The translations under genes and the position numbers were made by a program. A DNA stretch of 64,000 nucleotides from positions 366,121 to 430,120 of the forward strand of contig CAWHSF010000003.1 of NCBI GenBank assembly GCA_963832025.1, given 5' to 3'. Under the pieces are notes generated by a model. That model saw nothing but the letters and a program-made list of their open reading frames with translations. It was not told the DNA's origin and did no database searches. Below, one piece after another: positions 5,018 to 62,037 of this stretch (positions within the stretch are counted from its first letter, which is position 1; each line of letters begins with the position of its first letter). The DNA is from Candidatus Nomurabacteria bacterium (GTDB lineage: Bacteria > Patescibacteriota > Minisyncoccia > Phycocordibacterales > UBA9973).

Positions 5018-8000
5018 ATGAATTCTCGCTTATATCTTGGCGATGATAACAAGAAATACATCTCAACTAAAGAGGCTAGTTCTTTGACGGGTTACTCCAG
5101 AGATTATATAGGCCAACTTGTCCGAAGTAATAAGATAGATTCCCAAAAAATTGGCCGTACATGGTATGTCTCGGAGGAAGCAATTTTGAACTATAAAATA
5201 TTCTCAAATCAATTAGGGTTGGTTCCAGATGTGGCGCCAGAAAAGATCCAAAGTGAAAATTTTATTCAAAATCCGGTCGTGATTCCAGTTCCGAGTGTAA
5301 AACTTCCTGCTCCTTCCGTGTCGGGCGAAAAATTAAAAAAGAACCTAAAAAGAAAAAAAATACTTTTATCAACTTTTAGTTTTCTCCTGATAGCCGGGAT
5401 AGTCTCTGCGAGTGGTATCAATTTTAAAGAAGTCTTTAAAAATACTTTCTCCACGCCCAAAAGTTTTTTATCTGCTAGTTCAATCCAATCATTCCCCAAC
5501 AACAAAACACCGACCATAAACATTTCTGACTTGGCGACTTCATATGAAAATTATCTTACTCCACAAGTAGCAACCTCAAGTAAACCTTCTGCTCCTTCGG
5601 TTGAAAAAATTATTGAAATTGAAAAAAGTCCGGTTACGCAAACTGCTGTTCTTTCCATTTTGCAGAACTTGCTCAGCGAACCGGCAATCCAAAATGAACT
5701 TCGTGGTCCGACTGGACCAACCGGCCCAGCCGGAACTTCGGGAAGCTATGCCACCTACACCAGTTATGTGGCTCCGAATCCGGCAATCAATTATGTCGGC
5801 GCCACTTTTTCTTCCGCTTCCAATTTATCTTCCAACCTCTTGAACACCGGCACAGCCAACATAAATAATTTAGCTGTCTCCGCCGGCGCGATAATCGGAA
5901 GTTTGAATGTGACAGGAGATTCTTCTTTTGGCGGACAAGTTGTCGCCTCAACTGTTGTTGATTCCGGTTTAGTAAACCAAACTTGCATCGGCACCGATGC
6001 ATCAGGCGCATTTGAAGCCGGCACTTGTGGCAGTGGTAGTGGCAGTCAGTGGACAACTAGCGGGTCAGATATTTATTACAACACCGGCAACGTCGGCATC
6101 GGCACAACTTCACCGGCAGCAACGCTCGATGTCACCGGCACAGGTAATTTTTCCGGCGCACTGACCGCGGGAACAATTAACGGCATCACTTTCTCCGGTT
6201 CTTCCACGCCGACGCTCAGTGTCTCCGGAACGGCTTCCGTCTCTGGCGCCAACACCGGAGACAATGCAACCAACACACAATATGCAAATGACTATCGAGC
6301 AGCAAATTTTGTCGCCGGCACAGATTACCAAGCCCCCGTCACTCTCACTACCACCGGCAGTAGCGGAGCTTCCACTTTTTCTAGTAACACTTTAAATATT
6401 CCAAACTACACTCTCGCAGGTCTCGGAGGAATTTCTAATATCTCCGGTCAAGATTTAAGCACAGCCAACAATGCAACATCAAAATTTATAACTTTAGGTT
6501 CGCTTTCTGCCGGAACCGGAATTTCTTACGATAATACGACTGGGATAATTACAAATTCTGCTCCAGACCAAACCGTTGCTTTTTCCGGTGGAACAAATGT
6601 AACGATTGGTGGAACTTATCCAAACTTTACAATTACCGACAACTCCATAACTACGGGAGGAGCCAGAAGCGCAATTTCACTGACAACCACCGGAAGTTCC
6701 GGAGCCTCTACTTATAATTCGGGAACGGGTGTTTTAAATATTCCTCAATATCAAGCAGGATTGAGTTTAATTAAGGGAACTTATGTTGATGGGGATGTTT
6801 GTACTTATGCTTCTACCGGCACTCTTTTAAATTGTAATACCGCGGCATATCAAATAGCTTCTTCCGCTCTTTCTTCCATCGCCGGTCTTGCTTGGTCTTC
6901 CGGAACACCTTTCGTTAAAATGACAGCCTCCGGAACCTTTGCGCTAGATACAAATACATATGCGACCGGAAGTGGAACAGCCAGTGGCACCAACACCGGC
7001 GACCAAACACTTACCATCGGGGGCACAACTTCTCCAACTATCGCCTTATCGGGAAGCAATACAGCAACATTCTCCGCAGGAACAGGAATTACTTTAGGGC
7101 AATCGGCTGGAACGATAACAATTACAAATTCTGCACCTTTCACTGGGGGACTTCTTGCTACCGGTGCAACTACCGGTGCAACAAGCCAAGCTCAAGCGTT
7201 TACCAATGGCATAATCTCTCCGACCATTCTGGGCGGTTCAGGAACAACGCAAACACTTAACTTCCAAACTACTTCAGGGGTGGGTGCAACGGGAGCCGAT
7301 ATGCATTTCAATGTCGGCAACAACGGAGCGACGAATGCCATGACGATTTTGAATAGCGGCAACGTCGGCATCGGGACGACGAGTCCGGCACAGAAGTTAA
7401 CTGTCACTGGTGGAAATATACAAATGACTGATGCTGGGGCGAAATTGTATTTAACAGATGGCTCACATTATGTTTCTTACGACGGCACAAATACGCAAAT
7501 ATTTTCTAGTGTTGGTGGCGTCAATTTAGCAGTTAATACGGCATCTCCTATTTCATTTATAACTAATTCAGCGTACCAAATGAGGTTAAGTGCTACTGGA
7601 GGATTGTCACTTGGTTCAACCTATTATTCTACGGACGCTGGGGCAGGGAATATGATAATACAAGGCAAGGTCGGCATCGGGACGACGACGCCTGCTTATG
7701 GTTTAGATGTAGCAAAAGGGACTGGGGCAACGGCACAATTTTTTGACCAAACCGCGACCACGGGTAGCACGCTTGTTACTATTCAAGCAGGTGCGGCACA
7801 AAACGCTGGAGCTTATACAAATGTTTTGAATTTTGCTGGCAATAATGGAACGACCAGAGGGTATATAGCTGTAGACGGATTGAACGGAGTATCAAAACTA
7901 AATATTACTGATGTTGTCGCTTCAAATGGTAATTGGGAGTTAAAAGATTCGGGCTCGTTAAATATGTATGCTGGCAATTCAATCTACTTGCAAAATGCTC

Positions 8001-11000
8001 ACTCCAACTCTAATATACAATTGTATAACACTGGGGCAACGGGGGTATCGAGTCTAGCAATAATGAACGGCAACGTCGGCATCGGGACCACGGGGCCGAG
8101 TGATTTGTTGCAACTTGGCACTGGAAATTTAAGTTGGTCATCTGATGGTGGCGGTGATATTGGGGCGAGTGGAGGAAATAGACCAGGGAATATTTATGCT
8201 AAGATTCAAGTCAGGGCTGGTGCTGGTTATCTAAATGGTAATACGGTTGGAGGGAGTAGCAATTTTGCTTTGTCTGGTGGTGGTAGTGCTACTTTGACAA
8301 TTGGCGGAACAAGCAACACCATTGTTTTCAAAACTACCGCCTCTAATTCAGAGGTAATGAGGATAGAACCAATAAACGGCAACGTCGGCATCGGGACGAC
8401 GACACCGACGGCTTACTTAAACATCAAAGCAGGAACAGCCACAGCTAACACCGAACCTCTACAACTTACCGCTGGAGTATTAAACACCTCCGCCGTCTCC
8501 GGAGCATTAGAAACAGATGCAAGTAACAATTTATATTACACACCGGGTACAGGAACGAGAGGAATTATTCCTTTGGGCACAGCGGCAAATACTTTGCTCT
8601 TTACTACTACTGGTGCGACGAATGTGACTTTACCAACAAGTGGAACGCTGGCAACACTTGGTTCTCCAACTTTCACTGGCACTGTCACCACACCGGCTTT
8701 AACCATTTCCGGTATCACCGGCAGTACCCAATGCTTACAAGTCAACAGCAGTGGTGTGGTCAGTGGCACATCTGCAGCTTGTGGCGGAGGTGGTGGTTCA
8801 ACTGCTTGGAGCAGTATCACCAACCCAAGCGGAAATCTTTCTTTGGCAATGGCTGGTGACACCAGTACTTTCACTTACGGAGCGACAACCGGTTCAGCAA
8901 ACTTGTTCAACTTAACCGACACCTCTTCCAATACCGGCACTGGAGTTTTGTTGAATGTCTCAACTGCCAGTGGTTCTACTTTAAATCCTTTCTCCGTGAC
9001 TACCGCCGGTGCAACAAATCCGAGCTTGTATGTCGGTTCTAATGGTAACGTTTCAATTGGAACCTCAATTACAAATACTGCAGTTCTGCAAGTACAAGCA
9101 CCGGTTCCGGAGAGTAGTCTTTTTGCTTTTGCGAACCATGATTTTTCTCTGGGTAGCGTAGGAACTGCCATGACGATTGATACCGGAGCTACCTCCGGAG
9201 ATACCTATGTGGATATGCAAGCTTACAACGCTGGTGGAGTTAATGGCGGTCCTTTAGTTTTTAATGCTGCTGGTGGTAATGTCGGGATTGATACAAACGA
9301 CCCAACTACCGCTCTCACCGTTAATGGGAGTATGTCCAATCTCCTTAATCCCAGTTCAGCTTTTTTAAATGTTGTAGGTTCGACATCAATTACTTCTGCT
9401 TCCGTGGTCTACGTCTCCGGTAACTATGCCTATGTGGCAGATTATACCGGTAATGAACTTGATATTGTTGACATTACCAATCCGAATGCTCCCTATGTGG
9501 CTGGCACATTAAGCGGAATTAATCATATCTCTTCCATCTACGTTTCCGGTCGTTATGCCTATGTGACGGACAAAAGTATTGGTGACATGACTATCATTGA
9601 TGTTTCCAATCCGATTTCACCGACTGTGGTCGGTACATTAACCGGACTTAATACTCCTACCTCCATCTACGTTTCTGGTCGTTATGCCTATGTAGCGGAT
9701 AGCGGTAGTGGTGATATGTATGTGATTGATGTTTCCACTCCGAGATTACCGATTGTGGTTGCCACCTTAACCGGGCTGAGTAGTCCTTCCTCCATCTATG
9801 TTTCCGGTCATTATGCCTATGTAGCAGATAGTGGTAGTGGTCACATGTCTATCATCGATATTTCCGATCCGGTTTCACCGAATGTGATAGGTACAGCAAC
9901 CGGACTTGGTAGTCCCTCCTCTGTCTATGTCTCCGGTCGTTATGCCTATGTGACGGATACGGGTAGTGGTAACTTGTATTCCATTGACCTTTCCAACCAA
10001 GCTTCTCCGAGTGTGGTTGGTACGCTACCAGGATTTATTACTCCAACTGATGTCTATGTTTCTGGTAATTTTGCATATGTAACAGACAGTGACGGTGAAC
10101 TCGACGTCGTTGATATTTCCGACCCGACTACTCCGATTTATGATACATATGCAGGACTTACTGCTCCCGACTCGGTCTATGTCTCCGGTCAGTATGCCTA
10201 TGTCGCGGATAGTGGTGGCGGCGATATGGCTGTCATTGACCTAACCGGAACACAAACAACTTCCTTGACCGCCGGGAGTGCGAACATCGGCAACTTGCAG
10301 ATTGCTAATGATTCTTTGGTTGGTGGTCAACTGCAAGTAAATGGTGCCCTGACAGCCAACGGTGGAAACTTTAACAGTGGAGTTGCAGTAAATGGAAATA
10401 TTTCCAATACCATTTCATCTTCTTCTCCTCCGACTGTCGTTGCTACTGCCACCGGGCTGACTAATATCTTAACTGACTATGTCTCCGGTAACTATGCGTA
10501 TGTAGGAACTGGTACCGGTGGTACTGGTCATATGTATATCGTTGATATTTCCAATCCGACTGCTCCGAGTGTTGTCGGTACATTATCAGGGGTTGGTAAG
10601 ATTAATTCTATCTATGTTTCCGGTCAGTATGCCTATGTGTTAGATGATAGTAATGGCTACATGGATGTCGTTGATATTTCCAATCCGCATGCCCCAAGTG
10701 TTGTCGGTACAGTGGTAGGGTTTACTGGTCCTGTATCTATCTATGTTTCCGGTCATTATGCCTATGTGACAGATGCCAATTCTCTGACTTTGTCTGTCAT
10801 CGATGTTTCCAACCCGACTGCTCCGAATCTCATCGGAAGTCCATTGTCGCTGACTGCTCCTCTCTTCATCTATGTTTCCGGTCATTATGCCTATGTGACG
10901 GAAAGTGGTGGGAGCATGGATATCATTGATGTTTCCAATCCGTATTCTCTGAGTATTGTCGGTACAGCCACAGGACTTGGTTCTCTTGATGGCAATGTCT

Positions 11001-12514
11001 ATGTCTCCGGTCGTTATGCGTATGTAACAAATACTGCTAGTAGTGGTGATATGTATGTCGTTGATGTTTCCAATCCAGTTTCTCCAAGTACTGTCGGTAC
11101 ATTAGGACTTTCTTGGCCTCTTGGTATCAATGTCTCCGGTCATTATGCCTATGTGACGAGTTATGCTGGTGGTGGCATGTATGTCCTTGATGTTTCCAAT
11201 CCGACTGCTCCAAGTGCTGTTGCTCTTACACTCGGACTGACTACTCCTTCTTTTATCAGGGTTTCCGGTCGTTATGCCTATGTGGTGGAATCTACTGCTA
11301 GTTCCATGGCTGTCATTGACCTCACTGGTACCCAAACAACTTCTCTCACCTCCGGTAGTGCTAACATCGGTAACTTGCAAATTGCTAATGATGCTTTGAT
11401 TGGTGGTCAACTGCAGGTGAATGGTGGTTTGACGGCAAGTGGTGGAAACTTTTCGGGGGATGTGGCGACTGAGGGATCCTTAAACATTGCTGGATATGTA
11501 GGTATCGGGACGACGATGCCGGACAATCCTCTTACTGTTAACGGCGCAGCGGACAATACTACCGGTGTATGGTCTGTATTTTCTGATGAACGCTTGAAAA
11601 ATATTGACGGCAACTTTAATGATGGCTTGTCCACCCTGATGCAGTTTAATCCGGTTACGTTTACCTATAATGGACAAAATGGAATTTCGGACACTACTAC
11701 ACAGCAAATTGGTATCGTTGCTCAAGACGTGCAACAATTTGCTCCATATATGATAAATACAGTGGAAGGGACATTGAACGGACAGCCTACGAGTCTACTT
11801 CAATTCAACCCGCAAGCATTGCCATATATCACCATCAATGCAGTTAAGGAATTGAATCTAGATTTAGATGCGATTTCGGGATTGACGGTGCCGACTCCGA
11901 CTCCGGAATCTACCAGTTTTGCAACTGCGTTCTTTAAAAATATTGAAACTAAACTTATTGCTTGGTTTGCTGATGCTGGGAATGGAATAGGAGATTTGTT
12001 CGCTGGAACAATTCACGCTACAAATGAACTATGTATCAACACCACTTGCGTGACTCAAGCACAACTGCAAGCACTTTTGGCAAATTTAAATTCAAACGGA
12101 AACGCAGGAAACAATACGTCTGCCAATGCAGGCGAAAATAATTCAAATGTTCAAAATCCGCCTTCCAGTATTCCCGTAATCACTTTGATTGGTGATGCCA
12201 CCATTAATTTAAATGTCGGAGATACTTACACTGAACAAGGAGCAACTGCCACCGAAAATGATAATGCAGTCGCGGTTGTTATCAGCGGGACGGTAGACAC
12301 AACCACTGCCGGCACTTACACTGTTGATTATGATGCGACGGATTCTGCCGGGAACAAAGCGGTTGAAGTTACGAGAACAGTGATTGTTGCAAATGCGCCA
12401 GTTTCAACTTTTTCGTCGGACTCAGGATCTACGGCTACGCCTGCGACAACACCAGATTCAACAACAGCTAATTCCACAACCACTCCAGATTCTAGCACTT
12501 CAACTTCAAACTAA
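5018..12514 (+). CDS. Giant (2498 aa) membrane-anchored surface protein. Domain order: N-terminal excisionase-type HTH, one TM helix, short collagen-like GPT run, tail-fibre-like GNVGIGTTSP repeats, two 7-repeat LVIVD blocks, S74-type intramolecular chaperone domain, Ig-like domain, Thr/Ser-rich tail.
   Basis: Single uninterrupted ORF. HTH: YISTKEASSLTGYSRDYIGQLVRSNKIDSQKIGRTWYV. TM: LLSTFSFLLIAGIVSASGI. Collagen-like: GPTGPTGPAGTSG. Seven G(N/K)VGIG(T/D)T motifs. Fourteen YVSGxYAYVxD...(V/I)(V/I)D(V/I)SNP repeats. S74 domain: SDERLKNI...GIVAQDVQQFAPYMI. Ig-like: ITLIGDATINLNVGDTYTEQGATA...AGTYTVDYDATDSAGN. Confidence 0.85.
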   Translation: MNSRLYLGDDNKKYISTKEASSLTGYSRDYIGQLVRSNKIDSQKIGRTWYVSEEAILNYKIFSNQLGLVPDVAPEKIQSENFIQNPVVIPVPSVKLPAPSVSGEKLKKNLKRKKILLSTFSFLLIAGIVSASGINFKEVFKNTFSTPKSFLSASSIQSFPNNKTPTINISDLATSYENYLTPQVATSSKPSAPSVEKIIEIEKSPVTQTAVLSILQNLLSEPAIQNELRGPTGPTGPAGTSGSYATYTSYVAPNPAINYVGATFSSASNLSSNLLNTGTANINNLAVSAGAIIGSLNVTGDSSFGGQVVASTVVDSGLVNQTCIGTDASGAFEAGTCGSGSGSQWTTSGSDIYYNTGNVGIGTTSPAATLDVTGTGNFSGALTAGTINGITFSGSSTPTLSVSGTASVSGANTGDNATNTQYANDYRAANFVAGTDYQAPVTLTTTGSSGASTFSSNTLNIPNYTLAGLGGISNISGQDLSTANNATSKFITLGSLSAGTGISYDNTTGIITNSAPDQTVAFSGGTNVTIGGTYPNFTITDNSITTGGARSAISLTTTGSSGASTYNSGTGVLNIPQYQAGLSLIKGTYVDGDVCTYASTGTLLNCNTAAYQIASSALSSIAGLAWSSGTPFVKMTASGTFALDTNTYATGSGTASGTNTGDQTLTIGGTTSPTIALSGSNTATFSAGTGITLGQSAGTITITNSAPFTGGLLATGATTGATSQAQAFTNGIISPTILGGSGTTQTLNFQTTSGVGATGADMHFNVGNNGATNAMTILNSGNVGIGTTSPAQKLTVTGGNIQMTDAGAKLYLTDGSHYVSYDGTNTQIFSSVGGVNLAVNTASPISFITNSAYQMRLSATGGLSLGSTYYSTDAGAGNMIIQGKVGIGTTTPAYGLDVAKGTGATAQFFDQTATTGSTLVTIQAGAAQNAGAYTNVLNFAGNNGTTRGYIAVDGLNGVSKLNITDVVASNGNWELKDSGSLNMYAGNSIYLQNAHSNSNIQLYNTGATGVSSLAIMNGNVGIGTTGPSDLLQLGTGNLSWSSDGGGDIGASGGNRPGNIYAKIQVRAGAGYLNGNTVGGSSNFALSGGGSATLTIGGTSNTIVFKTTASNSEVMRIEPINGNVGIGTTTPTAYLNIKAGTATANTEPLQLTAGVLNTSAVSGALETDASNNLYYTPGTGTRGIIPLGTAANTLLFTTTGATNVTLPTSGTLATLGSPTFTGTVTTPALTISGITGSTQCLQVNSSGVVSGTSAACGGGGGSTAWSSITNPSGNLSLAMAGDTSTFTYGATTGSANLFNLTDTSSNTGTGVLLNVSTASGSTLNPFSVTTAGATNPSLYVGSNGNVSIGTSITNTAVLQVQAPVPESSLFAFANHDFSLGSVGTAMTIDTGATSGDTYVDMQAYNAGGVNGGPLVFNAAGGNVGIDTNDPTTALTVNGSMSNLLNPSSAFLNVVGSTSITSASVVYVSGNYAYVADYTGNELDIVDITNPNAPYVAGTLSGINHISSIYVSGRYAYVTDKSIGDMTIIDVSNPISPTVVGTLTGLNTPTSIYVSGRYAYVADSGSGDMYVIDVSTPRLPIVVATLTGLSSPSSIYVSGHYAYVADSGSGHMSIIDISDPVSPNVIGTATGLGSPSSVYVSGRYAYVTDTGSGNLYSIDLSNQASPSVVGTLPGFITPTDVYVSGNFAYVTDSDGELDVVDISDPTTPIYDTYAGLTAPDSVYVSGQYAYVADSGGGDMAVIDLTGTQTTSLTAGSANIGNLQIANDSLVGGQLQVNGALTANGGNFNSGVAVNGNISNTISSSSPPTVVATATGLTNILTDYVSGNYAYVGTGTGGTGHMYIVDISNPTAPSVVGTLSGVGKINSIYVSGQYAYVLDDSNGYMDVVDISNPHAPSVVGTVVGFTGPVSIYVSGHYAYVTDANSLTLSVIDVSNPTAPNLIGSPLSLTAPLFIYVSGHYAYVTESGGSMDIIDVSNPYSLSIVGTATGLGSLDGNVYVSGRYAYVTNTASSGDMYVVDVSNPVSPSTVGTLGLSWPLGINVSGHYAYVTSYAGGGMYVLDVSNPTAPSAVALTLGLTTPSFIRVSGRYAYVVESTASSMAVIDLTGTQTTSLTSGSANIGNLQIANDALIGGQLQVNGGLTASGGNFSGDVATEGSLNIAGYVGIGTTMPDNPLTVNGAADNTTGVWSVFSDERLKNIDGNFNDGLSTLMQFNPVTFTYNGQNGISDTTTQQIGIVAQDVQQFAPYMINTVEGTLNGQPTSLLQFNPQALPYITINAVKELNLDLDAISGLTVPTPTPESTSFATAFFKNIETKLIAWFADAGNGIGDLFAGTIHATNELCINTTCVTQAQLQALLANLNSNGNAGNNTSANAGENNSNVQNPPSSIPVITLIGDATINLNVGDTYTEQGATATENDNAVAVVISGTVDTTTAGTYTVDYDATDSAGNKAVEVTRTVIVANAPVSTFSSDSGSTATPATTPDSTTANSTTTPDSSTSTSN

Positions 12515-12681: not shown

Positions 12682-14778
12682 ATGGCAAAAGAGAAAGAAG
12701 ACAAAAAAGGTGGCGACAAAAGCCACCATTATGATGCCTCCGACATCTCGGTTTTGGAGGGTCTGGAGCCGGTTCGACGCCGTCCGGGCATGTATATCGG
12801 TACGACGGGGCCGGAAGGCTTACATCATTTGATTTGGGAAATTTTTGACAACTCTCGTGATGAAGCGATGGGTGGTTTTTGTGACGATATTGAAATTGTG
12901 CTTTTGCCAAACAACCGCATACGCGTCGCCGACAACGGCCGAGGCATGCCGGTAGACATTCATAAAAAAACCAAAGTCTCCGCGTTGGAGACAGTCATGA
13001 CGACACTGCACGCCGGAGGAAAATTCGGCGGTGACCATAGTGGCTACAAAGTTTCCGGAGGTTTGCACGGTGTCGGCGCTTCGGTAGTGAATGCGCTTTC
13101 TATTTTTTGCGAAGCGAGAGTTTGTCGAGACGGTGGTGAATACCGACAAGAATATTCGGAGGGCAAAAGAAAATCCGCGGTTAAAAAAATAGCGTCTTCA
13201 AAATTGCATGGCACGATTATCACTTTTGAACCGGATAAAAAAATTTTTGGTGATATTAAATTTGATTGGAATACCATTGTCGCTCATATTCGCCAACAAG
13301 CTTATTTGGTGAAAAAACTGAAAATTTTAATTATTGATGCGCGTGAATGGGACAATAATAAAGGTATGAATGAATCCGACGTTTTTTATTTTCGGGACTT
13401 GAGGCTGGAACTTCCGTCGGTCTCTTTTTATTTTGAAGGCGGATTGGTTTCTCTCGTAAAATATTTGAACAAATTTCAAAAGCCCGTCCAAAGCAATATT
13501 TTTTATGTTGAAAAAGAATTGGATGGTGTCGGTGTGGAGATAGCTCTGCAATATGTAGATGATATTTCCGAACGCATCATTCCTTTTGCAAACAATATCA
13601 ATACTCCCGAAGGTGGCACCCATGTGACTGGTTTTAAAACAGCACTCACTAGAACTTTGAATACTTACTGCAAGAAAAATGAAATGATGAAAGAGTCCGA
13701 AGGCGGATTTACCGGCGAAGACGTCTTGGAAGGTTTGACGGCGGTCATTTCTGTAAAATTGCGCGAGATACAATTTGAAGGTCAGACTAAAGCAAAACTC
13801 GGTAGTATGGAGGCGCAAGGCGCGGTGGCGACAGTTTTCGGCGAAGCCTTCGCAAATTTCTTGGAAGAAAATCCGGACGAAGCAAAAATAATCATCAACA
13901 AATCCATTCTTGCCTTAAAAGCCCGCAAAGCCGCCAAAGCCGCCAAAGATTCCATCCTCCGCAAGGGTGCTTTGGAAGGGATGACTCTTCCGGGGAAACT
14001 CGCAGACTGCCAGAGCAAGAATGCATCCGAATCCGAACTATTCATCGTGGAGGGAGATTCCGCAGGTGGTAGTGCCAAACAAGGACGCGACCGTCGCACT
14101 CAAGCTATTTTGCCACTTGCGTGGAAAAATTTTGAATGTTGAACGCGCGCGCATTGACAAAATGCTCGCTTCCAAAGAAGTGAAATCGCTTGTCATTGCC
14201 ATGGGTACATCCATAGGAGATACCTTTGATATAGACAAAATGCGTTACCATAAAATAATCATCGCGACCGATGCCGACGTGGACGGTTCCCACATCAGCA
14301 CATTGCTTTTGACTCTTTTCTATCGATATTTTCGCCAAGTGATTGACGCGGGATATATTTACATCGCGCAGCCTCCACTATATAAAATAAAAAAAGGCAA
14401 AGAAATTTTTTATGCTTACACTGATGAAGAAAAAGTAAAAATTATCGGCAAAAATGCGGATGTGAGTGACATTGAGGAGGTGGAAGATGAAGAACCCCTA
14501 CCCGACCTCCCCCTTGTTAAGGGGGAGGAGAAGAGGAGGAGGGTCTAGAGAAAAAATCCACTAAAATTCACATTCAGCGATATAAAGGTCTCGGAGAAAT
14601 GAATCCAGAAGAACTTTGGGAGACGACCATGGATCCTGCACATCGCGTGCTCAAGCAAGTGATGATTAATGACGCCGAAGAAGCCAACAAAATTTTTGAT
14701 ATTCTCATGGGCTCCGAAGTTCCTCCGCGTAAATCTTTCATTCAATCCAATGCGAAACTAGCGGAGATTGATATCTAA
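12682..14778 (+). CDS. gyrB: DNA gyrase subunit B. The reading requires two frame changes.
   Basis: Motifs [70 protein letters not shown] and [19 protein letters not shown]. The frame changes near 14117 (extra base between CTT and CGT) and returns in the G5 run at 14521-14525, inside a palindromic insert. Confidence 0.9.
14506..14528. repeat. Family B palindrome inside gyrB
   Basis: cctccccctt-gtt-aagggggagg. The 10-bp stems are identical to the smc copy. Confidence 0.85.
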
Positions 14779-18527: not shown

Positions 18528-19223
18528 ATGATACAATTTTCCGATTTTGAAAAAAAAATAAAAGTAGTTTTTAAAAATAAAAATTTATTAAAACAAGCCT
18601 TTACGCACCGTTCTTTTATTAATGAAAATCCGGCTACATCTTTGTCACACAATGAACGCCTGGAATTTTTAGGCGATGCAGTTTTGGAACTTATCGTCAC
18701 TGATTTTCTTTACAAAAAATATCCACAATATGCGGAAGGAGAATTGACCGCTCTTCGTTCGGCGCTCGTGAACGCGATTATTATTTCTGAAATTGCTTCG
18801 CAAATCGGAATGAATGATTATCTGCTTTTGTCTAAAGGTGAGGCTAAGGATTTTGGGAAGGCCAGAATGTATATTTTGGCGAATACTTACGAAGCATTGG
18901 TTGGAGCTATGTATATAGACGCTGGCTATGAAGTCACGAATAAATTTATCACCAAAACTCTTTTGCCGAAGACTGAAGAAATTGTGAACAAAAAACTTTG
19001 GCGCGATGCGAAATCTCTAGTGCAAGAAAAAGCGCAGGAATTTGTTTCCGTTACTCCGGCTTATAAAGTGTTACTGCAATCAGGGCCCGACCACGATAAG
19101 CATTTTACGGTCGGTATTTTCTTTGGGGGAGATTTGGTTGCTGAAGGCAAAGGCAAATCAAAACAAGAAGCTGAACAATCAGCCGCTCTATGCGCATTAA
19201 AAAACAAAAACTGGTTAGATTAA
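18528..19223 (+). CDS. rnc: Ribonuclease III
   Basis: Signature NERLEFLGDAVLELIV, plus ANTYEALVGAMYID and a C-terminal dsRBD (GPDHDKHFTV...GKGKSKQEAEQSAA). Confidence 0.9.
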   Translation: MIQFSDFEKKIKVVFKNKNLLKQAFTHRSFINENPATSLSHNERLEFLGDAVLELIVTDFLYKKYPQYAEGELTALRSALVNAIIISEIASQIGMNDYLLLSKGEAKDFGKARMYILANTYEALVGAMYIDAGYEVTNKFITKTLLPKTEEIVNKKLWRDAKSLVQEKAQEFVSVTPAYKVLLQSGPDHDKHFTVGIFFGGDLVAEGKGKSKQEAEQSAALCALKNKNWLD

Positions 19224-19245: not shown

Positions 19246-21417
19246 ATGCGTCTCAAGACCCTTCAATTAAATGGTTTTAAATCATTTGCCCAAAAGACAG
19301 TTTTAGAATTCGAAAGCCCTATTGTTTCCATCGTCGGGCCCAATGGATCCGGAAAATCCAATATTGTGGAAGCTTTTCGTTTTGTCTTAGGTGAACAATC
19401 CATGAAATCCATGCGCGGAAAGGGTGGTTCAGACCTTGTGTTTAAGGGTTCAAAAAAACTGTCAGCCGGTTCTAAAGCTTCTGTCTCTATTTATTTTAAT
19501 AACACCGATAAGGTGTTTAAATTATCCAACGACGGAGGAGATGAAATAAATCTAAATTACGACACCATTTCTATTTCTCGCGAAGTTTACTCCGACGGAC
19601 TTAACAAATATATTTTAAATGGTTCGGAGGTTAGACTGAAAGATATTCACAATTTGCTTGCCTCGGTGAACATCGGTTCTTCCGGACACCATATCATCTC
19701 TCAAGGCGAGGCAGACAGAATTTTAAATGCAAACACGAAAGACAGGCGTGAGATGGTTGAGGATGCGCTTGGATTGAAAATCTATCAATATAAAATTAAA
19801 GAATCAGAAAGAAAACTGGAAAAGACAAATGAGAACATGAAAGAAGTTGTTCTTCAGCGTCGAGAAAATGTTCCGCATTTGAATTTTTTGAAAAAACAGG
19901 TAGAGAAATTTGAAAAGACGAAAGAAATGCAATCGGAGCTAGCAGTTCTCTATAAAGAATATTTAAAAAAGGAAAGTGTTTACTTAGAACAAGAAAAAGA
20001 AGCGCTCGGAGCAGAGAGAAAAAAAATTTCAACTGAGTTAAAGAGCGTGGATGAGAAAATTTCTATTATTGAGGACAATGACCCCCTCCGTCATTCTGAC
20101 ACCTCCCCCTTATTAAGGGGGAGGATTGGTGGGAGTTCTTCTTTAGAAGAACTCAGACTGCTCGAGCAGAAAATAAATTCTTTACGAGCAAGTAGAGGAG
20201 AACTTGAACGTAAACTCGGACGCATTGAAGGAATCTTGGAATCTAGAGCAAATAAAGTTCAAATTTCTGGTAGGTGTCCGCTTTGTGGTAGTGAAATTAA
20301 AGAAAATGCCGAGCAGATAGAAAAAAAACATAATGAAGAAAAAGAACTTGAAGAATTAAAAGTCTCACAAGCAAATGCGTTATCGGAAATAAAAAAGATT
20401 GAAGCGGAAGAAAAAGAGGGAATCAGTTCGGCGGAAAAATTGAAACAGGACATAAACAAGGAGATGGAAGCTTTGCGTGATTTGGAACGCGAGAAATTTG
20501 CTTTCAAAGTGCGTCACCAGGAGCTAACGTCTGCCTTAGAACTCGTAGTTATTAAGGAAGGGAATTTACATAGTCGCACAGAGGCTTTTGAACAAGAAAT
20601 AAAAGAAGGCGCAGTCTTGATCGGACAAGAAATTTATTCTTATAAAACTTATGAAGTCACAGAAGATGTTTTGGGTCATATTCAAGAAGAGCAGAGAAAA
20701 AAAATTGAACGTATCAAGATAAAATTGGAAGATACCGGTTTGGGGAATGGAGCCGAGCTTATGAAAGAATTTCAAGAAGTCTCCGAACGAGATCAGTTTT
20801 TGGCAAAAGAGATGGAAGATTTGGAGAAAAGCATCGAATCATTGAAAAAATTGATTGCAGACTTGAAAGAAAAAATTGACATAGAATTTAAAGAAGGCGT
20901 GAAAAAAATAAATGTGGAGTTCCAGGAATTTTTCTCGCTGATGTTTGGCGGAGGGCACGGTTCTCTTTCTATTATTGAAATTAAAAAGAGAAAAGTGAAT
21001 GAAGTGGATGAGGATGGGGAGGAGATAACTGAGATGGAAGATGAAGAAGACGAAATGCCGGAAAAAGGAATAGAAATAAATGTTTCTTTGCCGCATAAAA
21101 AAGTGAAAGAACTGAATGCTTTTTCGGGCGGAGAACGCTCGCTCACATCTATCGCGCTTCTGTTCGCCATGTCGCAAGTGAATCCGCCACCGTTTCTGGT
21201 GCTGGATGAGACAGATGCCGCGCTCGATGAATCAAATTCCCGTAAATACGGCGATATGCTTGAAAAACTTTCCGAACATTCTCAGCTTGTCGTTGTTACC
21301 CACAATCGCGAGACGATGTCTCGCGCCGGGATACTTTACGGCATCACTATCGGTTCCGACGAAGCTTCCAAACTTCTTTCTGTAAAATTCGAAGAAGCCA
21401 CGCAGATTGCAAAATAG
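19246..21417 (+). CDS. smc: SMC-family ATPase, short (723 aa) and hingeless, with a central CPLC motif
   Basis: N-terminal head: GFKSFAQKTVLEFESPIVSIVGPNGSGKSNIVEAFRFVLGEQS. C-terminal head: FSGGERSLTSIALLFAM...FLVLDETDAALD...VVTHNRETM. About 375 aa of Lys/Glu-rich coiled-coil-like sequence with GRCPLCGSE at aa 342-350 and no hinge-like Gly-rich domain. Confidence 0.8.
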   Translation: MRLKTLQLNGFKSFAQKTVLEFESPIVSIVGPNGSGKSNIVEAFRFVLGEQSMKSMRGKGGSDLVFKGSKKLSAGSKASVSIYFNNTDKVFKLSNDGGDEINLNYDTISISREVYSDGLNKYILNGSEVRLKDIHNLLASVNIGSSGHHIISQGEADRILNANTKDRREMVEDALGLKIYQYKIKESERKLEKTNENMKEVVLQRRENVPHLNFLKKQVEKFEKTKEMQSELAVLYKEYLKKESVYLEQEKEALGAERKKISTELKSVDEKISIIEDNDPLRHSDTSPLLRGRIGGSSSLEELRLLEQKINSLRASRGELERKLGRIEGILESRANKVQISGRCPLCGSEIKENAEQIEKKHNEEKELEELKVSQANALSEIKKIEAEEKEGISSAEKLKQDINKEMEALRDLEREKFAFKVRHQELTSALELVVIKEGNLHSRTEAFEQEIKEGAVLIGQEIYSYKTYEVTEDVLGHIQEEQRKKIERIKIKLEDTGLGNGAELMKEFQEVSERDQFLAKEMEDLEKSIESLKKLIADLKEKIDIEFKEGVKKINVEFQEFFSLMFGGGHGSLSIIEIKKRKVNEVDEDGEEITEMEDEEDEMPEKGIEINVSLPHKKVKELNAFSGGERSLTSIALLFAMSQVNPPPFLVLDETDAALDESNSRKYGDMLEKLSEHSQLVVVTHNRETMSRAGILYGITIGSDEASKLLSVKFEEATQIAK
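20102..20124. repeat. Family B palindrome inside smc
   Basis: cctccccctt-att-aagggggagg, with GC-rich flanks. Translated as [11 protein letters not shown]. Confidence 0.85.
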
Positions 21418-53156: not shown

Positions 53157-53975
53157 AAAAATACAAAGAAAAAAATTTTTTAAAATTGCACTCGGTGTGG
53201 TTGTTTTAATTATTTTATTTTTTTTTCGAACGGGTGTTTGGAACGGATTTTCGGATGTCAGTGAAATAATTTTTCATCCAGTTTTAGTTTTAGGAAAAGG
53301 AATTGAAGAAAAGTTCAAAGATATCGGTTCATATTTTGTTTCCAAAAGTTATCTTTATAATCAAAATCAAAAATTACAAGCAGAGGTTTCTTTTGATGAT
53401 GCACGAATGGCAAACTATAATTCTTTGGTTGCGGATGATGCCAGCTTGAAAGAAATTTTAAGCAGAAAGACCCGAAAGTAAATATGACTTTGGCCGCTAT
53501 TTTATCTAAGCCAAACCAAAGTCCTTATGATACCTTATTGATTGATGCGGGAACTAGCCAAGGTGTCGTAACAGGAAATACGGTTTTTGCTTTAGGCGAT
53601 GTGCCAATTGGTCGTATTTCAGATGTTTATCTAAATTCTGCCAAAGTAGTTTTATTTTCTAATCCGGGAGAAACAACACAAGCAATGATTTCATATCAAA
53701 ATCTCACGCCATCAGCAACTAATTCAACTGCCTCTTCTCCCAACAGTAATGTCTTTGTAAATTTAGTCGGAAGAGGTGGTGGAAATTTTGAAATTGTCAT
53801 ACCAAAAGGTGTGGTTTTGGAAGAGGGAGAGCAAGCGGTATTGCCGGGTATCAATGATTATGTTTTGGGTATTGTGCAAAAAGTAATTTCCGACCCGCGC
53901 AATGCTTTTACCAAAGTATTATTAACTAGTCCGATAAATATTGAGGAGCAAAAATTTGTGGAAATAGAGCAATAG
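53137..53975 (+). CDS. mreC: Rod-shape protein MreC, with one frame break near 53466-53475
   Basis: N-terminal TM helix, a coiled segment (NQNQKLQAEV), then SPYDTLLIDAGTSQGVVTGNTVFALGDVPIGRISDV, typical of the MreC beta-barrel core. Position is directly after mreB. Confidence 0.75.
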
Positions 53976-54010
53976 ACATCGGACATCTTCTAAAGCAGGT
54001 GTCCGATGTC
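53975..54010 (+). repeat. 36-nt hairpin upstream of tgt (copy 1)
   Basis: gacatcggaca-tcttctaaagcagg-tgtccgatgtc: 11-bp stem and 14-nt loop. Confidence 0.8.
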
Positions 54011-54032
54011 TCATAACGCAGAGAAATCCATT

Positions 54033-55344
54033 ATGGAATTTAAAATTGAGAAAAAATTAAAAGGAAGTCTTGGGCGTGCGGGGGTTTTAAAAACAGCACA
54101 TGGAGAAATACACACTCCGGCTTTTGTGGCTGTGGGCACGAAAGCAACAATCAAATCTTTGAATCCGGAACAAGTTCGTGAGGCTGGCGTGGAAGTGGTA
54201 CTTGGCAATACTTATCATTTATATTTACAACCGGGGGATGAAATCGTGCGTGATGCGGGGGGAATAGGGAAGTTTATGAATTGGAAGGGTCCGACCATGA
54301 CCGATTCCGGCGGTTTCCAAGTTTTTTCTTTGGGCGTGGCTTATGGAAAAGATATTTCGAAAATTACCAAAGCCGTGACTGACCCATCGCTTTTAATTCC
54401 GGAACGTTTTGACGATAGTGATGCTCCGCGTTTGGCAAAAATTGGGCAAGACGGAGTTTCTTTTAAATCACATCTAGATGGCTCGGTTCATTACATTACT
54501 CCCGAAAAATCAATTCAAATACAGCACAATCTTGGTGCAGATATAATTTTTGCATTTGATGAATGCACAAGCCCGACAGAAGATTTGAAATATCAAGAAG
54601 AAGCGCTGGAACGCACCCATCGCTGGGCGGAGAGAAGTTTAAGAGAGCATTCTAGGCTTGTCGCCTCGGCTGATACTTTTGCTCAGTCGCTCGGTCCCTC
54701 GCCAAGCTCAGCCACTCCTTTGCAAAAGCATGCATCCTCGGCTCCAGAAAAACTTGAAAGAAGTTTCGCACCAGCTCTTTTTGGCATCGTGCAAGGAGGC
54801 AGAGATGAGCGACTCCGAAAAGAAAGCGCGAAAGCAATCAGCGCTATGGACTTTTGATGGTTTCGGTATTGGTGGAAGTTTTGCCAAAGAAGATATGTCT
54901 ACCGCCGTGCGTTGGGTGAATGAAATTTTGCCGGAAGAAAAACCTAGGCATTTGCTCGGTATCGGCGAACCGGAAGATTTATTTATGGGAGTAGAAAATG
55001 GTGTAGATTTATTTGATTGTGTTTTGCCGACACGGCTCGGTAGAAATGGGACGATTTACACCCAGAATGGAAAAATAATAATAATGAACACAAAATTCAG
55101 AAATGATTTTTCTCCAATTGAAAAAGATTGCGAATGTTACACTTGTAAAAATTATACCAAGGCTTATGTTGCGCATCTCTTTCATGGCAAGGAAATGTTG
55201 GCAGGAACACTAGCATCTATTCACAATTTGCATTTTATAGTCAATTTAGTGAAAAATATTCGGCAATCAATTTTAAATGATAATTTTTTTGAATTTAAAG
55301 AAGATTTTCTTAAAGGGTACTCTGAGACGTTGGACATCTGCTAA
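54033..55344 (+). CDS. tgt: Queuine tRNA-ribosyltransferase, with a GC-rich internal insertion and a frame break in a T4 run
   Basis: Motifs HTPAFVAVGTKATIK, LGNTYHLYLQPG, TDSGGFQVFSL, FDECTSP, LFGIVQGG, GFGIGG, PRHLLGIGEPEDL and zinc site CECYTCKNYTKAY...H. Pieces join at the T4 run 54852-54855. Confidence 0.88.
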
Positions 55345-55361
55345 AGCAGGTGTCCAACGTC
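55326..55361 (+). repeat. 36-nt hairpin at the tgt stop codon (copy 2)
   Basis: gacgttggaca-tctgctaaagcagg-tgtccaacgtc. The loop matches copy 1 apart from one base, and the stem differences are compensatory. Confidence 0.8.
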
Positions 55362-55390
55362 TGGAACCTTTACACTTTTAGGACACTTGC

Positions 55391-55437
55391 TATACCCCCA
55401 CACTTATTTTTTGACTTTAAATAAGTGTGGGGGTATA
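55391..55437 (+). terminator. 19-bp perfect stem hairpin after tgt
   Basis: tatacccccacacttattt-tttgacttt-aaataagtgtgggggtata. Confidence 0.6.
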
Positions 55438-55468
55438 CTAATTTTAATTTAATGCGAGTGAAAAAAAA

Positions 55469-59529: not shown

Positions 59530-59600
59530 TGGACCTAGCGAGAATCGAACTCGCGCTTCGTCAATGCGAATGACGCGTAATACCACTTTACTATAGGCCC
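59530..59600 (-). tRNA. tRNA-Ala (anticodon CGC)
   Basis: The reverse complement gggcctatagtaaagtggtattacgcgtcattCGCattgacg... has the G3:U70 pair, A73, a perfect 5-bp anticodon stem and a TTCGATT T-loop. Confidence 0.75.
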
Positions 59601-59615
59601 GTGTATGCGGGTATG

Positions 59616-59687
59616 TGCGTCTTGTTGGAATCGGACCAACGGCCTTTCCGATGTGAACGGAACGCTCTACCCCTGAGCTAAAGACGC
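59616..59687 (-). tRNA. tRNA-Val (anticodon CAC)
   Basis: The reverse complement gcgtctttagctcaggggtagagcgttccgttCACatcggaa... folds as a cloverleaf with acceptor gcgtctt/aagacgc. Confidence 0.85.
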
Positions 59688-59702
59688 AAGCAGAATTCCC
59701 AG

Positions 59703-59773
59703 TGGACCTACGGAGAGTCGGACTCCGACCTCGTCCATGCCATGGACGCGTTCTACCGCTGAACTATAGGCCC
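59703..59773 (-). tRNA. tRNA-Ala (anticodon GGC)
   Basis: The reverse complement gggcctatagttcagcggtagaacgcgtccatGGCatggacg... has the G3:U70 pair and A73. Confidence 0.85.
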
Positions 59774-59858
59774 GTCTGTAGAATAATAGCCGAAATATAT
59801 AAAAATACAACGGCAATTTACATTTTAATCAAAATAATATAAAATGCCTTTGTTGTCT

Positions 59859-59931
59859 GGGCCTTTAGCTCATCTGGTAGAGCGCCTCATTTGCAATGAG
59901 GAGGTAAGGAGTTCGAGTCTCCTAAGGTCCA
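59859..59931 (+). tRNA. tRNA-Ala (anticodon UGC)
   Basis: gggcctttagctcatctggtagagcgcctcattTGCaatgagg...aggagttcgagtctcctaaggtcca, with the G3:U70 pair and A73. Confidence 0.9.
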
Positions 59932-60103
59932 CAATGATCCGCGAGAACAGCTGGGAGCTGCTTGAGCGAATCATCATTGTGTGACATGAGAGACGAGAAA
60001 GGCGGAGGCCGACGGGCCGAGCCGGGGTAGCGAAATTTTTCAGTAGAAAAATATTTGTGACCGAGTCTCCTAATGTCCACAGTTGTTCTTTGGAAAATTA
60101 AAT

Positions 60104-60157
60104 TCGGGAGTAGCTCAGCGGTACCTGCCTGCCGGCAGGCAGGGGGCGGTCGCCTGT
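60104..60157 (+). pseudogene. Orphan 5-prime half of tRNA-Asn (acceptor to anticodon positions 34-35) carrying a 20-bp palindrome in the D arm
   Basis: tcgggagtagctcagcggta[cctgcctgccggcaggcagg]gggcggtcgcctgt matches the intact tRNA-Asn 5-prime half at 60415-60448, apart from the insert and one substitution. Confidence 0.75.
60124..60143. repeat. Family C 20-bp perfect palindrome inside the tRNA-Asn 5-prime fragment
   Basis: CCTGCCTGCCGGCAGGCAGG, inserted relative to the intact tRNA-Asn D arm. Confidence 0.9.
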
Positions 60158-60171
60158 GATATGATTTAGAA

Positions 60172-60435
60172 ATGGAGGAAAATTTCGTTTACGCCATAAA
60201 AAGCATAAAGGATGGCAGAATTTATGTTGGAATGAGTCGTAACCCGTAAAAGAGATTGTTGGAACACAACAGCGGAAAAGTTTTTTCTACGAAAGGTTTT
60301 CGTCCTTGGATTCTGATATTTTTTGAAAATACTGGCGCAAGTAGAATTTATGCCAGAATTAGGGAAAAATATTGGAAATCAGGGTGTGGTAAGGAAAAAT
60401 TGAAAAAAGAATATTCGGGAGTAGCTCAGCGGTAG
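60172..60435 (+). pseudogene. Small GIY-YIG (COG2827/YhbQ-like) nuclease gene with an in-frame TAA at 60247-60249. Its 3-prime end runs into tRNA-Asn.
   Basis: Translation: MEENFVYAIKSIKDGRIYVGMSRNP*KRLLEHNSGK...GFRPWILIFFE...ARIREKYWKSG. This is the GIY...YVG...R...EHN pattern of the GIY-YIG fold. Confidence 0.7.
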
Positions 60436-60486
60436 AGCGGTCGCCTGTTAAGCGATTGGTCGTAGGTTCGATCCCTACCTCCCGAG
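60415..60486 (+). tRNA. tRNA-Asn (anticodon GUU)
   Basis: tcgggagtagctcagcggtagagcggtcgcctGTTaagcgattggtcgtaggttcgatccctacctcccgag folds as a canonical cloverleaf. Confidence 0.9.
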
Positions 60487-60676: not shown

Positions 60677-62037
60677 TCAAAGGTTCGCCTTTTTCAAACT
60701 TGGCTCTTGCATCTCTGGCAAAGTCAGCAAACCTCGTCTGCTTTTTTCATAAAGCAGGTCAACATCCTTGCCCGTCTTGTTAAAGATATTTTCCCAGCGT
60801 TGTTTTTCTGCTGTTAGTGGTTCTTTACGCATTTTAAATTCCTCCTCGGTTAATTCTTGATTGGCTCGCATATCAATCAAGCCCGACAATTTTTTCAAGC
60901 ATTCTTTATATGCCTTATTTTGCGTATCAAGGATGGATTCGGTTGTTTGAGCTTGTTTGGCGTTTTCTTTTCTAAACCACTTCAAAGCAAAATCGTGCAA
61001 ATCTGGCGGGAATGGTTAGTGAATCAATTTCTGTTTTAATTTGTTTTTCCAATTCTTTTTGCTCAATACATTTCTGGGTGCAGTTTGGATTTATGCGTTT
61101 CGTGCAATGGTAATAAATATATCTGTGTATGTTGCCGTTCTTGTTGCCTTTTGATTTTTTCTTCTGCTGTAATGCTTGCTCCGCACTCTCCGCACTCCAT
61201 AAGCCCCGTAAAGGCGAAAATATGCGTCTTGGGGCGAGGTTTGCCTTTCTGCCGAGATATTACTTGTATCTTGTCGTATTCTTCTGCAGTCATTAAAGGT
61301 TTATATGTCCCTTTATACCAAATACCACTTCCTTTCGGATATTCGAAAATCCCGTAATAAGCGGTATTAGTGAAAATATAGTAAATCGTATTTCTGCTCA
61401 TCTTTTTGCCATTGGGCATTTTAAAGCCCCATTCTTCGTTGGCTATATTTCTCTGATTTTTAACGGAGTATAAAGACCCGTAAGCATCATATCAACCATT
61501 TTACGAACCAAATCAAATCTTTCTGGGTCTGGGTAAATTTGCTTTTTACCTCGTTCGTCATATTTATTATTTTTATATCCAGTCGGGGCGGGTGCAGGAT
61601 ACATTCCTTTTTCAGCTTTTGTTTTTAATCCTCGTTTTACATCTTCGCCCTTGTTATCATTTTCCAGTTTCGCTTGATTACAAAACAGAGCAAGCATAAA
61701 TTTATCGTTGGGGATATTGCGCTATAAATTTGGCTTGGAGTTCTGACTTCAACCAGTTTCCCTAAATCCATTAAATACACAATCTTGCCTGTATCTATTG
61801 GATTTCGTGAAATTCTGCTTGGCGCTCCAAACCAAAAGCCCATTGGCATAGCCATTGTCAATTTTTTCAACCAGTTCGGCAAATTTAGGTCTGTTGAGTT
61901 TTTTTGCCGAGTGTGATTCTTCAATAATTTCAATACTATTCATGCTTTTCTCGTTTCGCAACAACTTAAAGTTCTTTTCTTGCGATTCAATAGATCAAAA
62001 CTTGCCTATCTTCTTGTTCGGAAGTATTTACGACAGT
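60677..62037 (-). pseudogene. Large serine recombinase split over at least five frame-shifted pieces
   Basis: Pieces read, in order: TVVNTSEQEDRQ...SIESQEKEL; SAKKLNRPKFAELVEKIDNGYANGLLVW; RISRNPIDTGKIVYLMD; recombinase domain GYKNNKY...RFDLVRKMVDMML...YYIFTNTAYYGIFEY; Zn ribbon GLMECGECGASITAEE; coiled-coil tail. Confidence 0.75.

Follow-up and report, generated by a model that had tools for sequence, protein, structure and literature searches.

The 64,000-nt window analyzed here, from a Candidatus Nomurabacteria bacterium (assembly GCA_963832025.1, contig CAWHSF010000003.1, positions 366,121 to 430,120 of the forward strand), carries the gene for tRNA-guanine transglycosylase (tgt) on its plus strand at 54033-55344, within the order proS-mreB-mreC-tgt-decarboxylase-DUF192, and this gene lies between two copies of a palindromic repeat. 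Copy 1 occupies 53974-54011 of the plus strand (AGACATCGGACATCTTC-TAAA-GCAGGTGTCCGATGTCT; whole element AGACATCGGACATCTTCTAAAGCAGGTGTCCGATGTCT) and copy 2 occupies 55325-55362 of the same strand (AGACGTTGGACATCTGC-TAAA-GCAGGTGTCCAACGTCT; whole element AGACGTTGGACATCTGCTAAAGCAGGTGTCCAACGTCT), the two starting 1351 nt apart with a conserved housekeeping gene between them. A preliminary description of this stretch, made from its letters alone, had placed copy 1 just after the mreC stop and ahead of the tgt start. The copy does end 21 nt before ATG 54033, which by comparison with homologs is the most likely tgt start (an ATG inside the 3' arm of copy 1 is not), but it starts within the mreC TAG stop codon (53973-53975), whose AG supplies its first two bases.

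Sequence and structure of the two copies

Both copies are 38-nt near-perfect palindromes of the form AGAC-RTYG-GACATCTNC-UAAA-GNAGGTGTC-CRAY-GTCT. The repeat unit comprises these 38 nt, with the foot AGAC(G)...(C)GTCT, plus a 3' CA tail that follows the GTCT of copy 1 at 54012-54013 on the plus strand. In the fold of each copy, a UAAA tetraloop caps a 17-bp stem that has a U·G wobble at its position 13, with folding energies of -24.8 kcal/mol for copy 1 and -34.8 kcal/mol for copy 2 (z = -6.7 and -8.0, respectively, against shuffles). The copies differ by two compensated base pairs (A-T to G-C and C-G to T-A) and by a fifth change, T/G at position 16, which produces a T·C mismatch in copy 1. 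The preliminary description had located both copies correctly, but had drawn each palindrome one base short on either side. It had also reported a four-base difference exactly compensated across the stem; the compensation is real, but ATCG and GTTG differ at two of their four bases, and hence in two pairs. The 14-nt loop that it described is mostly paired.

Strong hairpins at gene ends might be ordinary intrinsic terminators, or resemble one another by chance, but we consider either explanation highly improbable. A T-run is lacking behind both copies, where the sequence goes on with CATAACGC and GGAACCTT, and a terminator scan calls neither, whereas other terminators in the window do carry T-runs, in agreement with the earlier assertion that the hairpins are not random terminators. 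With up to three mismatches allowed, the 64-kb window still contains exactly two instances of the core GGACATCTNCTAAAGCAGGTGTCC, and none of 100 dinucleotide-preserving shuffles yielded so much as one core match. A search of Rfam returned no match at either copy, at the gathering threshold or at E values up to 1.

Further copies and covariation

A scan of 185,579 genomes, one per species, with a 20-base pattern gave three matches on genome contigs, two of which are true copies; both belong to one species, MAG_BO118, and lie on a single contig (JARLIG010000012.1, Candidatus Paceibacterota), while the third, at locus L001, is a chance terminator from Ruminococcus. A looser scan of this kind through 241 million records of metagenome contigs gave five matches, again with two true copies (L005 and L007). 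The chance-like matches (L001, L004, L006, and L008) are terminator hairpins with T-runs that lack the family core. Pattern scanning of viral contigs and BLAST searches of plasmids and phages gave no match, and a comparison of four open translations of the hairpin with 5.8 billion proteins revealed no candidate copy inside called proteins. In the fetched loci that were scanned with a covariance model (R1), no further family copy turned up; the model did pick up two other hairpins, one of different sequence in MAG_BO118 and a diverged one in L023. The family thus comprises six copies: the two in the window, two in MAG_BO118 (L002, and L003 after tgt), L005, and L007.

The six copies align without gaps and are invariant at 29 of 38 positions. 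The variable positions change as pairs: the box reads ATCG/CGAT, GTTG/CAAC, GTCG/CGAC, or GTTG/CAAT with a G·U pair; in addition, the foot pair is either C-G or U·G, and the pair adjoining the loop-closing pair is G-C, A-U, or a mismatch. Over the six copies 97% of pair cells are standard pairs and three pairs have changed on both sides; the observed covariation score was reached by only one of 500 shuffles, and sliding the partners by 1-3 columns lowers pairing to 29-40%. All changes are transitions that pass through G·U, and every wobble, including the three of the L002 copy, lies on the strand reading CTAAAG. The U·G at position 13 is kept in five of the six copies, and CA follows five of the six on the CTAAAG strand, with copy 2 carrying its CA on the opposite strand; since the six copies represent five independent loci, these tail and strand-bias statistics are weak. 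The preliminary description had claimed covariation between the two copies and had called for a search for more of them; the two are indeed homologous copies of one element, four more were found, and the six together covary.

All six copies are situated between co-directional open reading frames (ORFs), 0-28 nt past the upstream stop codon. At L002 of MAG_BO118, 15 nt separate the copy from the stop of the preceding 611-aa ORF and 8 nt from the ATG of the msrB-like ORF that follows; at L005, it lies 6 nt after the stop of an ORF resembling H+-pyrophosphatase (H+-PPase) and 7 nt before a tig-like (trigger-factor-like) ORF, the gene names at these two junctions having been read from sequence motifs; and at L007, it follows a stop codon by 28 nt. 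The terminus of the element can itself supply or overlap the stop codon, as in TAG-AC at mreC and TGA-GAC at tgt in MAG_BO118. Orientation is sense at four of the five loci, and at the fifth the window copy is flipped to sense. The element has been copied to several intergenic junctions that are not homologous to one another, and it has been gained or lost between close relatives. Bracketing of tgt, reported in the preliminary description, is therefore not the defining feature, as other copies stand at the msrB-like junction, the tig-like junction, and one further junction.

The tgt locus in related genomes

In relatives whose neighboring genes are visible, the order proS-mreB-mreC-tgt-Orn/Arg decarboxylase-DUF192 is kept, with L014 and L015 lacking the decarboxylase gene. 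Both sides of tgt are nevertheless free of hairpins in nine of the twelve other tgt lineages examined (L009, L010, L012, L014, L016, L017, L018, L024, and L025), L017 being counted here apart from an unconfirmed remnant upstream of tgt. Because tgt stays in place where the hairpins are absent, the comparison indicates that both flanking copies are lineage-specific insertions and that tgt is not a cassette; the pair around tgt appears to be the by-product of two separate insertions rather than a functional unit.

The mreC stop abuts the tgt ATG (TAATG or TAAnATG) with no hairpin between them in L009, L010, L012, L014, L016, L018, L023, and L025. Downstream of tgt, the closest relative, L016 (~90% amino-acid and 83% nucleotide identity), which is among the nine hairpin-free lineages, reads TAA|AACCTTTACA where the window and MAG_BO118 have TGA-[hairpin]-TGGAACCTTTACA. 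In L017, L018, and L024, the hairpin is missing together with the GGAACC beside it, which is consistent with a deletion between TTTA repeats. Right after tgt in L023 (1647-1687) lies a diverged copy 2 ortholog, ttCCAGACGTCGG-tattctgccctgcagaagc-CCGACGTCTGGaa, whose box is compensated (GTCG/CGAC), whose foot is longer (TTCCAGACGTCGG/CCGACGTCTGGAA), whose interior differs, and whose loop measures 3 nt. At the mreC/tgt junction of MAG_BO118 (L003 7125-7168, equivalent to L019 5820-5863), there is a different, perfect 18-bp hairpin, CCAGACGCTCCACGTCTG-ttagctta-CAGACGTGGAGCGTCTGG, which has only the foot CCAGACG/CGTCTGG in common with the family. Hairpins bearing this foot are thus gained and lost at the junctions around a stationary tgt. 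The gene caller ran the MAG_BO118 tgt through this junction hairpin, giving a protein (P0001) of 421 aa instead of 397 aa, 24 residues too long. Upstream of tgt in L017, at ~390-430, AGAGGTTGGACATCCGGTTTCTGTGGGTATACAACGCC matches 14 of the first 15 bases of the family 5' arm and no longer folds; this may be a decayed copy, which the covariance model does not detect.

These observations dispose of the suggestion, made in the preliminary description, that the hairpins could be the ends of a cassette. In such a scheme, tgt would be a mobile gene bounded by sites of the integron attC or pdif-module type, as two related imperfect palindromes around one gene might imply, and copy 2 (GTTGGAC...GTCCAAC) does fit the attC core consensus when read alone. 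However, the order of the core motifs is wrong, copy 1 has none of them, the stems contain no extrahelical bases, the 38-nt length compares with 57-141 nt for attC, Pfam scans of 30 window ORFs found no integrase nearby, and the other copies flank no cassette. Above all, tgt occupies the same position in relatives with visible flanks, hairpins or not. As for the check that had been proposed, whether tgt is missing between such hairpins in sister genomes, tgt is present in conserved order where the hairpins are missing, and we regard the cassette as the least credible of the explanations weighed here, already refuted by synteny.

The tgt genes of this clade vary in length (homologs of 384-470 aa) owing to a variable insert, which in the window spans 54650-54770, encodes ~32 amino acids (ADTF.QSLGPS...SATP), and recurs in P0020 and P0003, which are the closest homologs, but not in MAG_BO118. 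We considered whether these extra ~96 nt could be a palindromic insertion and rejected it: the segment has no fold (z = +0.9) and corresponds to the variable protein insert of the closest homologs.

Conservation and inversion of copy 2

Copy 2 begins at the position of the tgt TGA stop in MAG_BO118, where its orthologs lie at L003 5878-5915 and L019 7073-7110. Copy 2 and the MAG_BO118 ortholog are identical at 38 of 38 positions, but only as reverse complements, amid flanking coding DNA of 80-83% identity; aligned collinearly, they show four differences, all within the inner 14 nt, such that the segment TCTGCTAAAGCAGG is inverted relative to identical flanks. The chance of zero change in 38 nt at 82% identity is 0.82^38, or ~5e-4, which argues that the element is constrained or homogenized. 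Orientation is stable within each population: the copy is antisense to tgt in four MAG_BO118 assemblies and the other way in two assemblies of the window organism. Flip-flop heterogeneity was accordingly rejected, each set of assemblies showing a single orientation. The second of the window-organism assemblies, an independent short-read assembly (L026), contains copy 2 from its position 8 on in the same orientation, and its contig end (position 1) falls exactly inside copy 2, which suggests that the palindrome breaks short-read assembly.

An inner 14-nt flip could be read as the product of a recombinase, with the repeat acting as a protein-binding site on DNA, either an operator or a place of site-specific recombination (Xer/dif or invertase type). 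Such a site would be suited by the near-perfect dyad (GGACA...TGTCC, AGACG...CGTCT), by the inverted inner segment, and by a serine-recombinase fragment at 61063-61419. Against this, the copies sit inside operons just past stop codons rather than in promoters, their positions are not conserved among relatives, and neither full-length palindromy that includes the center nor G·U compensation is expected of a duplex binding site; furthermore, no mixed orientation is seen among the four MAG_BO118 or the two window-organism assemblies. Small inversions of hairpin loops between short inverted arms also arise without a recombinase, as known from plastid non-coding DNA. The plastid cases resemble ours in that the segment between short inverted arms occurs in either orientation in related genomes with the arms unchanged, and differ in that the piece inverted here takes in 5 bp of the upper stem plus the wobble pair and lies in a bacterial operon. 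On balance, a DNA-level site is very unlikely.

Is the hairpin a dedicated RNA signal?

The same conservation raises a more serious alternative, namely that the hairpins serve as dedicated signals on the RNA, sequence-specific sites for processing or stability at which RNase III would cut or a hairpin-binding protein would bind, and that they were selected at the borders of tgt and give this gene its own transcript and expression level apart from mreBC and the decarboxylase gene. The complete identity of the orthologous copies amid ~82% identical flanks is what such selection would be expected to leave, as are G·U wobbles confined to one strand, with the position-13 U·G in five of six copies, and the prevalence of the sense orientation, to which the window copy at the fifth locus has been flipped. 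Moreover, two genomes have some hairpin between mreC and tgt and three have one downstream of tgt, and the window contains an RNase III gene at 18528-19223. Phage T7 early mRNA and bacterial operons offer a precedent in their RNase III hairpins, which are likewise stable and located between cistrons of one transcript; as in those systems, cleavage would leave a protective 3' stem on the upstream cistron. These known sites, however, are gene-specific and have internal loops, while the hairpin described here is a dispersed repeat whose stem is shorter than two helical turns. As a putative double-stranded substrate, the predicted stem of 17-19 bp would be marginal, a 17-bp stem being at the short end of the RNase III range. 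Against this reading, nine of the twelve other tgt lineages examined have no hairpin at either tgt border, in the same operon where this is visible; the post-tgt copy of MAG_BO118 is antisense in four assemblies; the upstream hairpin of MAG_BO118 has a different sequence; and the same element is found at unrelated genes. We therefore consider a dedicated tgt signal unlikely, albeit the strongest of the rivals to a dispersed repeat family.

A variant that combines both ideas is somewhat less likely again. Here, the hairpins would be more than selfish repeats: streamlined Paceibacterota would copy a sequence-specific RNA signal, read by RNase III or a dedicated hairpin-binding protein, to operon junctions, re-partitioning the expression of tightly packed, formerly translationally coupled genes, and the signal would have been recruited or kept at the tgt borders in several lineages. 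If this were true, the conservation of the ortholog and the flip to sense would reflect selection on the RNA.

A probable family of REP-like repeats

We conclude that the hairpins probably constitute an apparently low-copy family of palindromic repeats resembling repetitive extragenic palindromic (REP) elements, found in a narrow clade of the ultra-small Candidatus Paceibacterota, transcribed within operons, and likely to modulate mRNA processing or stability. The family is new and narrow, but of a known kind of element, and does not represent a new class of system; a literature search for Paceibacterota found no paper reporting a REP family. REPs are imperfect palindromes of 20-40 bp that form a stem-loop, and the present repeat, with 38 nt, a 17-bp stem, and a 4-nt loop, falls within that range. 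They lie between unidirectional or convergent ORFs near the upstream 3' end, and this is where six of six copies are found.

The closest comparison is with CGTC-type REPs, which have been reported without a dedicated transposase (PMC3733652). Both are small dispersed palindromes found where unidirectional genes adjoin, near the stop codon of the upstream one; either can provide or overlap that stop with its terminus, and each shows variation of the CGTC end motif to TGTC; both divide into sub-families with complementary stem changes and G·T pairs, and vary in location between strains; and both are plausible mRNA stabilizers or partial terminators. The REPs of E. coli act in these ways, as 3' untranslated region (3'UTR) stabilizers and as partial terminators into the downstream gene (bioRxiv 10.64898/2026.03.23.713779). 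In contrast to the CGTC type, the stem of the present repeat is 17 bp rather than 8-9 bp, its CGTC is paired with GACG rather than forming an unpaired tag, its CA tail is next to the motif where the CGTC type has CCA at the far end, and it appears to be low-copy, with no link to a REP-associated tyrosine transposase (RAYT) found. Miniature inverted-repeat transposable element (MITE)-like elements and Rickettsia palindromic elements (RPEs) share the presence or absence in close relatives and the insertion beside or inside genes, and further palindromic insertions are present in the window genome, including one between 5-bp direct repeats; the family is, however, much shorter than typical MITEs, has no terminal inverted repeats apart from the hairpin, and shows no clear target duplication.

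Several points weigh against the assignment. As defined by Di Nocera et al. (2013, PMC3733652), CGTC/GTAG REPs have a stem of 6-13 bp with an unpaired terminal tetranucleotide tag beside it; here CGTC/TGTC pairs with GACG/GACA at the foot of the 17-bp stem. Classical REPs exceed 100 per genome, compared with two copies in the 64-kb window and two in the ~33 kb of MAG_BO118 scanned, and public collections yielded very few matches. Within the window, neither a tblastn search with a Y1 transposase nor Pfam scanning of 30 ORFs detected a transposase, and no target-site duplication is evident for the repeat family. The perfect conservation of the ortholog could mean specific function rather than selfish DNA, and co-transcription, the effect on mRNA, and the copying mechanism are all inferred. 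With its tag paired, its stem twice as long, and its copy number apparently low, the family is termed "REP-like" here and not a member of the CGTC REPs.

Three other ideas were examined and found wanting. The only Y1 gene encountered, a RAYT-like one, lies next to proS in a Nomurabacteria relative, L012 (6139-6798, minus strand), with a Pfam Y1_Tnp match, scoring 48 bits against NCBIfam REP_Tyr_transpos, under the 80-bit cut-off. A connection between this gene and the hairpins was rejected because the inverted repeats that flank it (GCTAGGTCTTGCC/GGCAAGACCTAGC) are unrelated to the family. A CRISPR-like or TIGR array does not agree with only two copies 1351 nt apart, as such arrays have at least three regular, short-spaced repeats. 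Finally, the foot resembles the CGTCTG of a DNA-uptake sequence, but foot words are not enriched in the window, which makes such a role unlikely; TCGGACA is mildly enriched, at unrelated sites.

Other repeats in the window

A third hairpin stands 30 nt after copy 2 (55387-55441), containing a 38-nt palindrome at 55396-55433 (CCCCACACTTATTT...AAATAAGTGTGGGG) that is flanked by 5-bp direct repeats, TATAC, resembling a target-site duplication. L017 and L026 carry this palindrome as well, while MAG_BO118, L016, and L018 are without it. An old extended -10 element (TGcTATACT) is split by the palindrome, which makes a near-consensus promoter, TTGACT-17-TATACT, before the decarboxylase gene. A second repeated hairpin of 40 nt (GAAGAACyCCyACC..CCTCCCCCTTnTTAAGGGGGAGG, 83% match) is found at 14489-14528 on the plus strand and at 20102-20141 in reverse, inside the gyrB and smc frames, much like the REP/RPE insertions that have been reported within genes for replication and repair. 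These additional palindromic insertions in the window genome count in favor of the REP-like assignment.

The window holds further repeats of other kinds. A 54-nt inverted repeat, 91% complementary, has its arms at 1050-1103 (in the pheS ORF) and 3119-3172 (near the end of the pheT ORF), with a perfect 23-nt inverted pair (3101-3123 and 3166-3188) at the second arm. A 2498-aa ORF (5018-12514) contains ~15 tandem repeats of 129 nt (43 aa) at 9339-11452 and other internal repeats at 6080-8430. The 118-aa ORF at 61063-61419 on the minus strand matches only the Recombinase domain of serine recombinases and, being adjacent to a tRNA cluster (59530-60486), may be the remnant of an integrated element.

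Frameshifts and the end of tgt

Single-base indels split four conserved genes of the window into two or three ORFs each, with sites at ~52775 in mreB, ~53470 in mreC, ~54852 and ~55320 in tgt, and ~14100 and ~14540 in gyrB; no homopolymer run is present at those inspected (mreB, mreC, and tgt). The +1 frameshift of tgt at ~54852 is an extra C (GGACTTTTGA, compared with GGATTTTGA in L016). Near the 3' end of the gene, a 1-nt deletion relative to relatives lets the frame continue as far as a TAA within the copy 2 loop (55342-55344), whereas the MAG_BO118 tgt stops at a TGA abutting the hairpin. Given that gyrB is essential, the indels are probably assembly errors rather than signs of gene decay. 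If they are, tgt would be intact and would stop at the TGA abutting copy 2, and the stop codon in the loop would be an artifact of the 1-nt deletion. The preliminary description was thus right that a tgt TAA falls in the copy 2 loop, but the overlap is incidental.

Proposed role and implications

Since all copies lie inside apparent operons, the element should be transcribed together with the flanking genes and would fold on the mRNA as the 17-bp stem capped by the UAAA tetraloop. At the mreC/tgt junction, a 58-nt insertion with copy 1 stands in place of the overlapping stop/start (TAAnATG) of relatives, and the hairpin would be expected to break the tight translational coupling of mreC and tgt seen there. 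By analogy with REPs, it may then act as a barrier that protects the upstream cistron from 3'-to-5' decay, as a partial block to transcription, or as an RNase III site, and any of these roles would uncouple the expression of neighboring cistrons. The window encodes RNase R in addition to RNase III, which makes cleavage of the stem or protection from 3' exonucleases plausible. Copying could, again by analogy, involve a single-strand DNA transposase of the Y1/RAYT type that recognizes the hairpin in trans, or else template switching and gene conversion.

Such elements carry a warning for annotation, as the hairpins make gene callers over-extend ORFs (P0001) and break short-read assemblies (L026). 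Bacteria of the Candidate Phyla Radiation have very compact genomes, and little is known of their non-coding DNA. The repeats described here indicate that even these genomes carry small palindromic elements that move into operon junctions, where they would break translational coupling, supply stop codons, and, in the neighboring case at 55396-55433, create a promoter. This would offer a cheap route to regulatory change between close relatives.

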